The notes under the pieces: model-generated | The model's database searches: none | The model's input: only the letters and a program-made list of their open reading frames with translations | What the model was told of the DNA's origin: nothing | Made by a program: the position numbers and the translations under genes | In this document: in pieces, positions 60,279 through 63,495 of the stretch | How the letters are laid out: each line of letters begins with the position of its first letter | Numbering within the stretch: position 1 is the first letter of the stretch | Assembly (NCBI GenBank): GCA_002238665.1 | Contig: MPMU01000001.1 | Location: 25,075-89,074, forward strand | Direction of reading: 5' to 3' | Length of the DNA: 64,000 nucleotides | From: Gammaproteobacteria bacterium bin55 | GTDB taxonomy: Bacteria; Pseudomonadota; Gammaproteobacteria; Pseudomonadales; Azotimanducaceae

Positions 60279-60303
60279 AACTGACAAATACTGTCAGTGA
60301 AAC

Positions 60304-60340
60304 AAAAAAAGCACCGAATGACTTACTGTCACACGGTGCT
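60304..60340 (-). terminator. Rho-independent terminator ending the minus-strand RraA-like/redoxin/UGSC operon
   Basis: On the minus strand: AGCACCG..TGAC..GTCA..CGGTGCT stem followed by TTTTTTT (A7 at 60304-60310). Confidence 0.6.
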
Positions 60341-60385
60341 CAGTAATTCGCAAACTCTTGTGATTGCTTAGATCAACACTTTCAC

Positions 60386-60925
60386 CTAGTTTCCGTTGCC
60401 GCCTTCGTTAGCAACCAAAGCATCAACGACGAGCGACAAACACTCATCTGCTTTTGATTGCATCTCTTCGTCGGTAGCATCCTGAATTGGATGAGGGACA
60501 AAGACACAAGGTGCACTCTTCAACCCCAGCGCTGTTGCTTGAGTTGCTGCTGCTGTTTTAAATTCGCTCGAGGCGATTGTTACTGCTGGAATCCCTTGGA
60601 TTTCAAACCATACCGTATCATGCAAACTGCACGTAGTACAGGATCCTCAGTCAGCGAGAGCTTCGACGACAAGGTCGGCTTGGCTCTTTATCTCCTTACG
60701 AAGCTGATCTGGAGCAGGTTTTGTGAAAGTGGGTTTCGCATATCTGGTCACCTCAACTTTCGGGTACTTCTCACTTAATAGATGCTCAAGACGATCTAGA
60801 AGTACGTTACCTCTAGGTTTCCTGATATCTAATAACGCTAACCGACCTTTTAACTCAGATGTTCTCGATGCCAATTGGCGTTCGATTGGTCTGCGTTCGT
60901 CAGTCGGGTCCAAAATGGTGGTCAT
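60386..60925 (-). CDS. UGSC-family predicted selenoprotein (in-frame TGA at 60647-60649 read as Sec)
   Basis: Track ORFs 60647..60925 and 60386..60625 share one frame and are separated only by a TGA. Read-through gives ...VVEALAD-U-GSCTTCSLHDTVW. There is a single AGGAGG RBS (60933-60938) with an ATG, and a single terminator. Confidence 0.7.
60608..60641 (-). promoter_or_regulatory. SECIS-like stem-loop immediately 3' of the in-frame UGA
   Basis: mRNA CUGUACUACGUGCAGUUUGCAUGAUACGGUAUGG starts 5 nt after the UGA. It folds to about 13-14 bp interrupted by a bulged A and a 2-nt bulge. The apical loop contains GUU about 19 nt from the UGA. Confidence 0.5.
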
Positions 60926-60952
60926 TCCGAATCCTCCTTGGTTATTAAGAAA

Positions 60953-62506
60953 TTATGACTCAATTTTCTTGGAGACTGGGATGGAGCCCATAGGTCCACT
61001 TGCCCAGCCATGGAATGCTGCGGAGAATTTTCCTGCATCTGACCCCGCAACAAAGATATGTATGTTATCTACCGAGGAAAACTTGGGCACCTTCGTTTGC
61101 CTCTTTTCTTCAGACATTTGCTCGTAAAGTGCTCTAGGTATTCCTACTCCACTGAAATCGTCCTCGACTAACTCCTGCGGTAGTACGGCACTCTTTTCCT
61201 GAATTCCTTCCTTTACATCCTGCTTCGAGTAGTTTTGTGTAGCTAGCGTGTCAACGTGTTCCGGACAAATCACGAGGATAGTGTCACCATTTCGATGTGC
61301 TCGCACATGGTGGATAGCTCGCATGGACAGCGCAAAACTCCCGATTAACTGTTCAGCGGATCTAGATGTCTGATCGATAATCTGCATCGGTCCACCTGAC
61401 ATAGCAAACACTGAGACAACAGAATCATCTTTTTGGAATCCCTTCTCGACGTGGTAGGGGTCCCAGTTGCTACGTTCTTCCCACTCAGCGAAACACATTG
61501 TGTATTTCATTGGGTTTCCGAGGGTTGATCTTTCGGTACCGCCTGGTTGAGCACCACCAATATTTCGGATCGCCAATCTAACGGCTCGACCGATCGCGGC
61601 ATTTGTACGCGTGCCTTGCCCTAAGGCTGACATTTTCATATTGACACCGATTTCGTGGCGAATCGGTCCATTCAACACCATGACTGGTGTAGCTCCCATC
61701 GTGGTTGCGAAGACACCGTGACAGTTGAACTCATCATTGCAAATAGCTTCAATCGTTGAGATTACTACCGGCAGGTATTCTGGCTTGCAACCTGCTAGTA
61801 CGGCATTCACCGCAATTTTCTCAACCGTTGCCGGCGCTAAGTTCGGAGGGATAGTCGCAACGAGTTCCTGTGGTTCACGGTTTGTTCCCGATAGCATCCG
61901 AATGACTCGTTCGGGAGTTGGTGGGACAACCGGTAGTCCATCCGTGAATCCTTGATCAAACATGAATTCATGGATGTCATCCTGTGAAGCGATTTCGAGT
62001 CGCCTTGCCCGAAGAGGACTATTCTCAGATTCCGCGCGGAGTCGATCTTGGATTATGGGATCCTGTGTAAGTGATCCACAACCGGGTCGCCATTCCGGTA
62101 ATTGGTCCCAATCGATCTCTGTGGATGGAAAGTGTTTCTCGAAAAACGTTCGCCATTCCTGTCTCTCAAATCCAATTAACTCATCTAATTTTTCACCGTT
62201 TGAATCCGCTAAGAAACAGTGGGGAACCGTTTCGAGATCGTAAGCGAATGAGACCTTTAGTATTGAGTCATCTAAAAGGGGAGCAGTAAGCTCATGATTC
62301 TTTACAAGAATCTCGTTGCCTTCCTGCGTTTGACCCGGTACCAAGACTCGAGTGCCAGAACTATCGTGAACCTTTTGAATGAGAGGAAGGACTAGATTAC
62401 AAGTAGGGCAATCCTCTTTGACAAAGCAGACAAAAGTTGCTTGGTTGTCAGGGAAGTGATGATCAGAACCATTCTGGTCAACGAGTTGAAAAGCTGGTAG
62501 TTCCAT
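60953..62506 (-). CDS. Redoxin/thioredoxin-like (CPTC) domain fused to a large uncharacterised domain
   Basis: N-terminal roughly 130 aa are TlpA/redoxin-like (FVCFVKEDCPTCNLVLPLI). The remaining roughly 380 aa (DGLPVVPPT..., NAAIGRAVRLAIRNIGG) match no family I can name. Confidence 0.6.
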   Translation of the reverse strand: MELPAFQLVDQNGSDHHFPDNQATFVCFVKEDCPTCNLVLPLIQKVHDSSGTRVLVPGQTQEGNEILVKNHELTAPLLDDSILKVSFAYDLETVPHCFLADSNGEKLDELIGFERQEWRTFFEKHFPSTEIDWDQLPEWRPGCGSLTQDPIIQDRLRAESENSPLRARRLEIASQDDIHEFMFDQGFTDGLPVVPPTPERVIRMLSGTNREPQELVATIPPNLAPATVEKIAVNAVLAGCKPEYLPVVISTIEAICNDEFNCHGVFATTMGATPVMVLNGPIRHEIGVNMKMSALGQGTRTNAAIGRAVRLAIRNIGGAQPGGTERSTLGNPMKYTMCFAEWEERSNWDPYHVEKGFQKDDSVVSVFAMSGGPMQIIDQTSRSAEQLIGSFALSMRAIHHVRAHRNGDTILVICPEHVDTLATQNYSKQDVKEGIQEKSAVLPQELVEDDFSGVGIPRALYEQMSEEKRQTKVPKFSSVDNIHIFVAGSDAGKFSAAFHGWASGPMGSIPVSKKIES

Positions 62507-62510
62507 CGGA

Positions 62511-63200
62511 TTAGTGTATCTCTGCTGAATCGCCCCAAGCTTTACGCAGGCGAGCCATATTGAATCCTTCTTCTTGCGCTGCGTCGATGATTACCCGTTC
62601 CTTCCGAGCGATCGCGGCGGCGGCTTCAGGCACGTCTGCTGCAACATCCTTCGGAATGATTACTGCACCATGTTGATCTGCGTGAACTAATTCTGTATCG
62701 CTCACTCGCATACCTGACACATTGATGTCTATTCCGTATGCAACGACATGAACAAACGCGTGTGATGGGCCAACTCGGTCAGCCAGCATCTGAAATCCTG
62801 GAGCTATATCGGGGAGATCTCTGACACTGCCATCGGTGACCAATCCCAAGCAACCGAGACCTTTGTGGATATTGCTGTTCACTTCACCCCAAAACGAACC
62901 ATATCCTCGTGCCTCGCCATCTAAGTCTTGGATAAGAATGATTGCTGGTTTTGGTCCTTCATCGATATATGCATAGTAATCTTGAGAGACGTTTTTGGTG
63001 TCAGCCGGGTGCGCAGCTCGGATGGTTGCAGTTCGCGCGAATCCCACCATGCTACCTAGTTCCGGCCGAGTACACACCAGTGGTTGTGTTGTATAACCAA
63101 AGCCCCTTCGTTGAGGTACGACGGTTTCCAACGCGTTGCAAACGGTAGGTGTATCTAGCTTAGTGAGTTCGGCTAAAAGAGCCGCATCAATTTCAGACAT
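62511..63200 (-). CDS. RraA-like / HMG-CHA aldolase-oxaloacetate decarboxylase family protein
   Basis: Motifs TPTVCNALE, WGEVNSNIHKGLGCLGLVTDGSVRDL and VHADQHGAVIIP. ATG 63200 is preferred; an in-frame TTG lies at 63221. Confidence 0.8.
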   Translation of the reverse strand: MSEIDAALLAELTKLDTPTVCNALETVVPQRRGFGYTTQPLVCTRPELGSMVGFARTATIRAAHPADTKNVSQDYYAYIDEGPKPAIILIQDLDGEARGYGSFWGEVNSNIHKGLGCLGLVTDGSVRDLPDIAPGFQMLADRVGPSHAFVHVVAYGIDINVSGMRVSDTELVHADQHGAVIIPKDVAADVPEAAAAIARKERVIIDAAQEEGFNMARLRKAWGDSAEIH

Positions 63201-63279
63201 ATAACTGTATCCTGCTGGCAATGAAACTTGATTCCGACAGGGTTACTAACCCTTCGGCGAAAAAAAGATTGTAGGAGTT

Positions 63280-63320: not shown

Positions 63321-63395
63321 GGGTGTTTAGCTCAGTGGGAGAGCAATGGCCTTACAAGCCATAGGTCGTAGGTTCAAGTCCTACAACACCCACCA
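63321..63395 (+). tRNA. tRNA-Val (anticodon UAC)
   Basis: Acceptor GGGTGTT/AACACCC, anticodon loop CTTACAA, T-loop TTCAAGT, encoded CCA. Confidence 0.9.
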
Positions 63396-63418
63396 ATTCC
63401 TCACCGTGTTTCTAGGTA

Positions 63419-63495
63419 GGAGCGGTAGTTCAGCTGGTTAGAATACTGGCCTGTCACGCCAGTGGTCGCGGGTTCGAGTCCCGTCCGCTCCGCCA
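63419..63495 (+). tRNA. tRNA-Asp (anticodon GUC)
   Basis: Acceptor GGAGCGG/CCGCTCC, anticodon loop CTGTCAC, T-loop TTCGAGT, encoded CCA. Confidence 0.9.

Follow-up and report, generated by a model that had tools for sequence, protein, structure and literature searches.

The window analysed here, a stretch of 64,000 nucleotides that is part of contig C109 of a 2.9-Mb assembly, carries on its minus strand a reading frame that starts at 60925, meets a TGA at 60649..60647 and stays in frame to a stop codon at 60388..60386. This raises the question whether the TGA is read as selenocysteine (Sec) and, if so, whether the stem-loop directly behind it is the SECIS element of the mRNA. Standard ORF calling cuts the gene in two and reports ORFs of 92 and 79 aa. 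With the TGA translated as U we obtained a product of 179 aa including U93, and the residue lies in the motif ALAD-U-GSCTTC. The profile searches returned the NCBIfam model NF041046 ('UGSC family (seleno)protein') with 166.4 bits at a cut-off of 125 and the Pfam model PF24696 with an E-value of 8.9e-49, above the curated cut-off (25); both matches span the TGA. Judged by these profiles, the minus-strand gene at 60386..60925 is a member of the UGSC (seleno)protein family and the two short ORFs are one selenoprotein gene.

UGSC has been described before as a selenoprotein family (Zhang and Gladyshev, GOS 2008; PMC2398784). That paper counts it among the most abundant ones of the Global Ocean Sampling, where it comprises 255 Sec and 21 Cys members, and a 2026 review lists it as well (PMC13188914). 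The gene in the window likewise exceeds both curated cut-offs and shows the U-G-S-C motif, and our census of loci agrees with the published picture of a mostly Sec-containing family. The available sections of both sources name the family and its motif and describe no family-wide SECIS consensus. A few full-length entries in the public databases have another residue at the Sec position, G or W for P0001 and P0002 and R for P0005; those with G or W may stem from gene calling under other genetic codes. Residues 80-159 of the protein encoded at 60389-60925 (minus strand) weakly resemble the C-terminal part, which contains Sec, of protein B of glycine/sarcosine reductase, with E-values of 0.003 for GrdF and 0.0098 for GrdB at profile positions of about 335-410. 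This hints that the UGSC and GrdB/PrdB selenoproteins may be distantly homologous.

The TGA is present at the homologous codon in 94/94, 80/80 and 80/80 related loci (three sets). In total, more than 250 loci spread over several phyla keep it at the Sec codon, and its position aligns with Cys in the Cys-form homologues. The UGSC loci most similar to this one bear the labels of marine Pseudomonadales or Gammaproteobacteria MAGs. In the same assembly, contig C133 yielded matches to selA (537 bits), selB (409 bits, covering profile positions 1-578 of 581) and selD (285 bits), all above the curated cut-offs, and ARAGORN placed a tRNA-SeC (tca) with the anticodon UCA directly downstream of selB. 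By these matches the host genome encodes SelA, SelB, SelD and tRNA-Sec, and its predicted Sec machinery is complete. The genes selA and selB are clustered with the tRNA-Sec in the region C133:1371-11209. The selD match sits within an open frame of 729 aa, which fits the Ndh-SelD fusions of marine bacteria mentioned in PMC2398784. The organism, a marine Pseudomonadales MAG, would thus read UGA as Sec at U93.

We number the mRNA from the U of the UGA, so that the Sec codon (60647..60649, minus strand) occupies nt 1-3. The first-pass annotation had drawn a SECIS-like hairpin of 34 nt at 60641..60608, beginning 5 nt after the UGA at 60649..60647, with a G-U in a small apical loop about 19 nt from the UGA. 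These positions are correct, and exactly 19 nt lie between the UGA and the G. RNAfold on the 34 nt predicted a lower stem and, above it, the upper stem CGUGCA/UGCAUG closed by a GUU loop, at a minimum free energy (MFE) of -9.1 kcal/mol. The core is a 15-nt minihelix from C17 to G31 (60633..60619) which starts 13 nt after the UGA and consists of 6 bp and the GUU loop. Its 5' arm CGUGCA (60628..60633) covers nt 17-22, the loop G23 U24 U25 lies at 60625..60627 and the 3' arm UGCAUG (60619..60624) covers nt 26-31. If the A-U closing pair opens, the loop becomes the pentaloop A-GUU-U and the distance to the UGA is 18 nt. Below the core a lower stem can form between CUGUACU (60635..60641, nt 9-15) and GGUAUGG (60608..60614, nt 36-42). 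The element overlaps the codons of the active-site peptide C-T-T-C-S-L-H-D, and the codon AGU of Ser100 supplies the GU of the loop.

The claim that such extended pairing inside a coding sequence is not expected by chance did not hold for the lone sequence. Compared with dinucleotide shuffles the 34 nt gave a z-score of -1.21, and 23 of 200 shuffles folded equally well; for the 71-nt stretch that had been proposed for folding z was -0.13. As neither z-score is significant, we did not rely on the folding energy. For coding sequence a fairer control keeps the peptide and draws synonymous codons from the codon usage of the genome, which is almost even for Ser, Thr and Leu. Under this re-encoding 2.8% of 3000 resamples reached the native MFE and 4.4% formed a stem of at least 6 bp with a GU loop. 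The native sequence is thus moderately unusual among its synonymous re-encodings, which taken alone is suggestive at most. A scan of 60300..61000 with the Rfam covariance models (E-values up to 10) returned no SECIS family and only chance miRNA and snoRNA matches. An energy no better than that of shuffled controls had been named beforehand as an outcome that would speak against a SECIS element, and formally this is what the lone sequence gave. However, the test is weak for a hairpin of 6 bp and its outcome is outweighed by the strong comparative data. The real support for the predicted hairpin is the comparison with homologues and not the energy.

The comparison draws on four sets of UGSC loci: one from 13 congeneric genomes, one of 80 additional loci from Gamma- and Alphaproteobacteria, one of 15 divergent loci (Rhodospirillaceae, Desulfobacterales and Burkholderiales) and one of 80 loci from Actinomycetota, Myxococcota, Acidobacteriota and others. 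Every locus of these four sets has TGA at the homologous codon. Two loci were not used: L125 has no UGSC motif, and for L211 neither the motif scan nor a scan for open in-frame TGAs found a UGSC-like site despite a TGA-containing profile match. A phylum-wide census detected PF24696 in 5 of 400 sampled genomes, one of them with a Cys form, and is too sparse for statistics.

The six core pairs together with the loop GU were found in 183 of 185 unique Sec-form sequences, which span Gamma-, Alpha- and Deltaproteobacteria, Actinomycetota, Myxococcota and others. G23 and U24 are invariant (185/185), and the third loop base can be G, U, C or A. RNAalifold applied to 99 unique 54-nt segments folded exactly this 6-bp stem with a triloop as the consensus, and the alignment contained no other conserved candidate hairpin within 60 nt of the UGA. 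Across these 99 sequences the core helix was paired in 92.8% of all cases, and in 99-100% for the inner six pairs. In many other lineages Thr98 is replaced by Ser (UCG) and the core grows to 8 bp by a U-A and a G-C pair. Individual loci showed additional features. In two Rhodospirillaceae MAGs (L112 and L113) two UGSC Sec sites lie on the same strand at positions 27-80 and 580-633, about 550 nt apart; these are tandem paralogues, each with its own TGA and hairpin. A different, longer hairpin can be formed by L116:556-609 (Desulfobacterales, TGA) and L111:583-636 (Hyphomicrobiales, TGC): a stem of 9-10 bp, in which GUCAUGYAC pairs with GUGCAUGAC, and a loop of 8-10 nt. L116 also has one broken core pair (U-U).

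Most core positions are invariant, so classical covariation rests on just two pairs, and covariation measures for the whole structure were only marginally above shuffles. The first of the two pairs is G18-U30 (alignment pair 10-22). In the set of 99 sequences we observed G-C in 66 cases, G-U in 26 and A-U in 6, and never A-C; among 132 unique Sec forms the counts were G-C 73, G-U 52, A-U 6, U-U 1 and A-C 0. The A-U cases fall in separate clades. The second pair is C21-G27 (alignment 13-19), and here the evidence comes from a paralogue clade in Reyranella, Enhydrobacter and Hyphomicrobiaceae (80 loci, all with TGA). Its peptide reads UGSCSSWSFHD and its hairpin UCGUGGA-GUU-UCCACGA, and all 41 unique sequences carry G-C in place of C-G at this pair. 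This reversal costs two amino-acid replacements, Cys99 to Trp and Leu101 to Phe.

The codon choice points in the same direction. Among 89 unique genes of the closest set, the synonymous-codon entropy collapses exactly over codons 95-105: the normalised entropy is at most 0.45 in all 11 codons, compared with a median of 0.895 in 76 other conserved codons (Mann-Whitney p = 5.6e-8). The flanking four- and six-fold codons show 1.5-2.3 bits of synonymous entropy, i.e. they vary freely. Thr98 is encoded by ACG in 88 of 89 genes, Cys99 by UGC in 89 of 89, Ser100 by AGU in 88 of 88 and Leu101 by UUG in 81 of 86.

If the hairpin serves the insertion of Sec, it should be dispensable where the residue is Cys. 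Our sample of Cys forms with DNA consists of four loci (L109, L110, L111 and L207). In L110, L111 and L207 codon 100 is GCC (Ala) or UCG (Ser); the loop GU is absent and only 4-5 of the six pairs remain. Six pairs plus the loop GU were thus found in 183 of 185 Sec forms and in 1 of 4 Cys forms (Fisher p = 3.6e-5, a value which overstates the case, since the relatives are not independent). The hairpin persists in one Cys form only, L109. This sequence shares 81% identity with a Sec form whose downstream nucleotides are the same, and its 80 nearest relatives all have TGA. L109 therefore looks like a recent Sec-to-Cys convert, or a sequencing variant, with a fossil SECIS. The pattern is what would be expected if selection keeps the hairpin in Sec forms and is relaxed in Cys forms, with n = 4 and one form keeping it. 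Equal presence of the structure in Cys forms without covariation was the other outcome that the first-pass annotation had named as contrary, and the data differ from it on both counts: three of the four Cys forms are without the hairpin and a pair covaries.

Not all parts of the original drawing are equally conserved. Its lower stem, CUGUAC with GUAUGG, becomes a stem of 7 bp when the pair U/C7-G28 is added (nt 1-7 with nt 28-34 of the 34-mer). In 45 unique gammaproteobacterial sequences this stem is paired in 92% of cases, compared with 17-44% for slid controls, and the codons favour the pairing: 73 of 88 genes use GUA for Val105, 82 of 89 use UGU for Cys96 and 81 of 89 use ACG for Thr104. 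Across the whole family just 46.8% is paired, so the lower stem holds within the clade and is a clade-specific addition to the core. For the window sequence RNAfold places its MFE lower stem elsewhere (nt 1-5 with nt 25-29 of the 34-mer); we rejected this variant, which hinges on the GAU of the window and is conserved at 77% as compared to 92%. The upper stem was confirmed in its central part, CGUGCA/UGCAUG with the GUU loop, both by RNAfold and by RNAalifold on the 99 homologues. The further extension by U7-A26 and A8-U25, which needs a bulged A and a 2-nt bulge, fared differently: only 18% of the cells are paired in the clade, because most members have GAC and ACC where the window has GAU and ACU.

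We then compared the hairpin to known elements. The consensus for bacterial SECIS elements, as stated in PMC13188914 and based on the bSECISearch model, comprises a loop of 3-9 nt on an upper stem of 4-16 bp, a G in the first two loop positions which is usually followed by G or U, a distance of 16-37 nt between UGA and loop, and an MFE of at most -7.5 kcal/mol. With a GUU or AGUUU loop on 6 bp, G23-U24, 19 (18) nt and -9.1 kcal/mol, the UGSC hairpin agrees with this consensus on all four points as given there. It also lies directly 3' of the in-frame Sec-UGA and within the coding region of the selenoprotein. The consensus pattern N1-G-[G|U]-N-N2 from the same review is matched as A-G-U-U-U, with the A and the U able to pair. 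The review adds that bacterial SECIS elements of different genes usually bear scant mutual resemblance. In this light the UGSC element is of the same kind, yet its nucleotide sequence is unusually well conserved between phyla.

A second point of reference is the fdhF element of E. coli, in which the apical loop contains the conserved bases G23 and U24, and U17 and G23 are named as the SelB contacts (PMC8659212). We read its sequence directly as UGCA-GGUC-UGCA. Both elements lie in coding sequence directly after the UGA and both have a minihelix of the form UGCA/loop/UGCA. Counted from the U of the UGA, G23, U24 and the 3' arm U26-G27-C28-A29 are at identical positions. The loop is GGUC in fdhF, whereas it has 3 nt (GUU) or 5 nt in UGSC. 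The fdhF minihelix measures 17 nt and starts 11 nt after the UGA; with 15 nt and 13 nt the UGSC minihelix comes close without coinciding. The bulged U17 of fdhF has no counterpart, as nt 17 is a paired C in UGSC. The only unpaired 5' base at the foot of the UGSC stem is A16, which in many homologues is a paired U. The lower helix of fdhF also differs from the lower stem of UGSC, which is clade-specific.

Taken together, the agreement with the consensus, the conservation in 183 of 185 Sec forms, the synonymous suppression, the covarying pair and the compensatory flip support the SECIS reading that the first-pass annotation had put forward, though its drawing had to be corrected, and we are confident that this UGSC-family selenoprotein mRNA has its bacterial SECIS element in the predicted stem-loop. 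Three other explanations were weighed against it. The TGA could be a genuine stop that leaves a split gene, a pseudogene or a pair of re-initiating ORFs, with the hairpin acting in pausing or mRNA stability. This would fit the ORFs of 92 and 79 aa from standard calling and the public protein databases, which hold the family mostly as N-terminal fragments of 98-105 aa ending at the Sec codon. However, a single Pfam/NCBIfam domain runs across the TGA, more than 250 loci of several phyla conserve it in alignment with the Cys of Cys forms, the genome has the complete Sec machinery and UGSC is a published selenoprotein family (PMC2398784). We regard the chance of a true stop as negligible. It is also very improbable, to a slightly lesser degree, that the full 34-nt structure is the functional element as drawn, with its bulged A and 2-nt bulge mimicking the bulged U of E. 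coli. The pairs are possible in the window's own sequence and the lower stem of the drawing is supported within the gammaproteobacterial clade, but the 45 unique clade members pair U7-A26 and A8-U25 in just 18% of the cells, RNAfold favours another lower pairing for the window sequence and family-wide the lower stem drops to 46.8%.

The hairpin might also be a by-product of coding, arising from the active-site peptide C-T-T-C-S-L-H-D and codon bias, while the insertion of Sec relies on something else. The peptide C-S-x-H, encoded by UGC, NUG and CAY, does automatically yield a UGC/GCA stem, 4.4% of the synonymous resamples produce a stem of 6 bp or more with a GU loop, the energy is not above that of dinucleotide shuffles, and some Cys forms fold here too (L109, and L111 with a different hairpin of 10 bp). 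The genome uses the codons of Ser, Thr and Leu almost evenly, and a by-product would not explain why synonymous variation is frozen precisely within the element and free in the flanking four- and six-fold codons. Nor would it explain that the compensatory flip from C-G to G-C is retained at the price of two amino-acid replacements, or that the Cys forms L110, L111 and L207, with GCC or UCG at codon 100, have lost the loop GU. Within 60 nt of the UGA the homologues conserve no other candidate hairpin. We consider this explanation very unlikely.

For the preferred SECIS reading, a mechanism can be outlined by analogy with E. coli. The functional core would be the minihelix C17-G31 with its 6-bp stem and the loop G23-U24-N, 13 nt after the UGA. 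Once the UGA is in the A site, any lower helix should already be melted and the minihelix would sit at the mRNA entrance, where the C-terminal winged-helix domains of SelB could bind the loop GU. SelB-GTP-Sec-tRNA(Sec), tethered in this way, would outcompete release factor 2 and Sec would be inserted at residue 93. In the gammaproteobacterial clade including the window, the 7-bp lower stem (nt 9-15 with nt 36-42) may add stability. As the element lies inside the active-site codons, the RNA would fix the codon choices ACG-UGC-AGU-UUG-CAU, and it probably helps to fix Ser100 itself, whose AGU gives the loop GU.

Further selenoprotein genes were also sought in this genome. A crude screen that combined in-frame TGAs with a redox motif and a hairpin returned 160 candidates, mostly noise, and HMMs confirmed only two further genes. 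One is Prx-like (C13:42226-42903, minus strand; AhpC-TSA, E 2.6e-26; motif W-U-P-F-C) and the other PrdB-like (C49:2600-3514, plus strand; TIGR04483, E 1.4e-22; motif U-P-V-C), each with an in-frame TGA. A third candidate on contig C7 matched no family and was discarded. The hairpins of the two confirmed genes have stems of 6-7 bp and five-base loops of the type N-G-U-N-N, CGUGC in the Prx-like and AGUUA in the PrdB-like gene, with the loop G at mRNA nt 25 and nt 22, respectively. All three mRNAs thus share N-G-U-N-N-type loops with the G within nt 22-25, whereas the stem sequences are unrelated and the loops CGUGC and AGUUA differ from the A-GUU-U of UGSC. Such shared loops are as expected if a single SelB reads them, and presumably one SelB does read all three selenoprotein mRNAs.

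Very probably the UGSC hairpin represents no new mechanism but an ordinary, well-supported case of a known one, within a selenoprotein family that is itself known, and it leaves the knowledge of Sec decoding unchanged. Two aspects are more noteworthy: it is conserved almost base for base between phyla, and its pairing is visibly coupled to residues of the active site. A bolder reading, which we find possible but rather doubtful, is that the UGSC SECIS is unusually 'portable': a 15-nt minihelix kept nearly base for base in at least five phyla, in the register of fdhF, co-evolving with its protein and working with many SelBs. If this were true, Ser100 would be held by the AGU codon of the loop, and the replacements of Cys99 by Trp and Leu101 by Phe would be the two halves of one compensatory base-pair flip. 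It might also explain why the family is nearly always Sec-containing and scattered over phyla, possibly via horizontal transfer. In practice, the consensus of a UGA, 13 nt, a stem of 6-8 bp and a G-U-N loop whose G is nt 23 could serve to flag UGSC genes in metagenomes. The locus also makes a clear teaching case of an RNA signal in a coding region that constrains codon choice and even active-site amino acids.

Finally, we inspected the gene neighbourhood. Directly upstream of the UGSC gene, 27 nt apart, lies a gene of 517 aa (60953-62506, minus strand). Its N-terminus shows a weak redoxin/ResA-like match of about 23 bits to several NCBIfam models (AhpC-TSA, E 5.6e-4), and the remaining 380 or so aa match no family. 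A gene of 450-490 aa with no recorded Pfam match also adjoins or overlaps the start of UGSC in a Hyphomicrobiales genome and on a metagenome contig (one such locus is L107:29-1504), which suggests that UGSC and the gene before it form a conserved pair. An RraA-like/aldolase gene (62511-63221, minus strand) follows 4 nt upstream of the 517-aa gene, resulting in a cluster of three genes on the minus strand. Beyond this cluster, a tRNA-Val and a tRNA-Asp (63321-63495) are oriented divergently on the plus strand.
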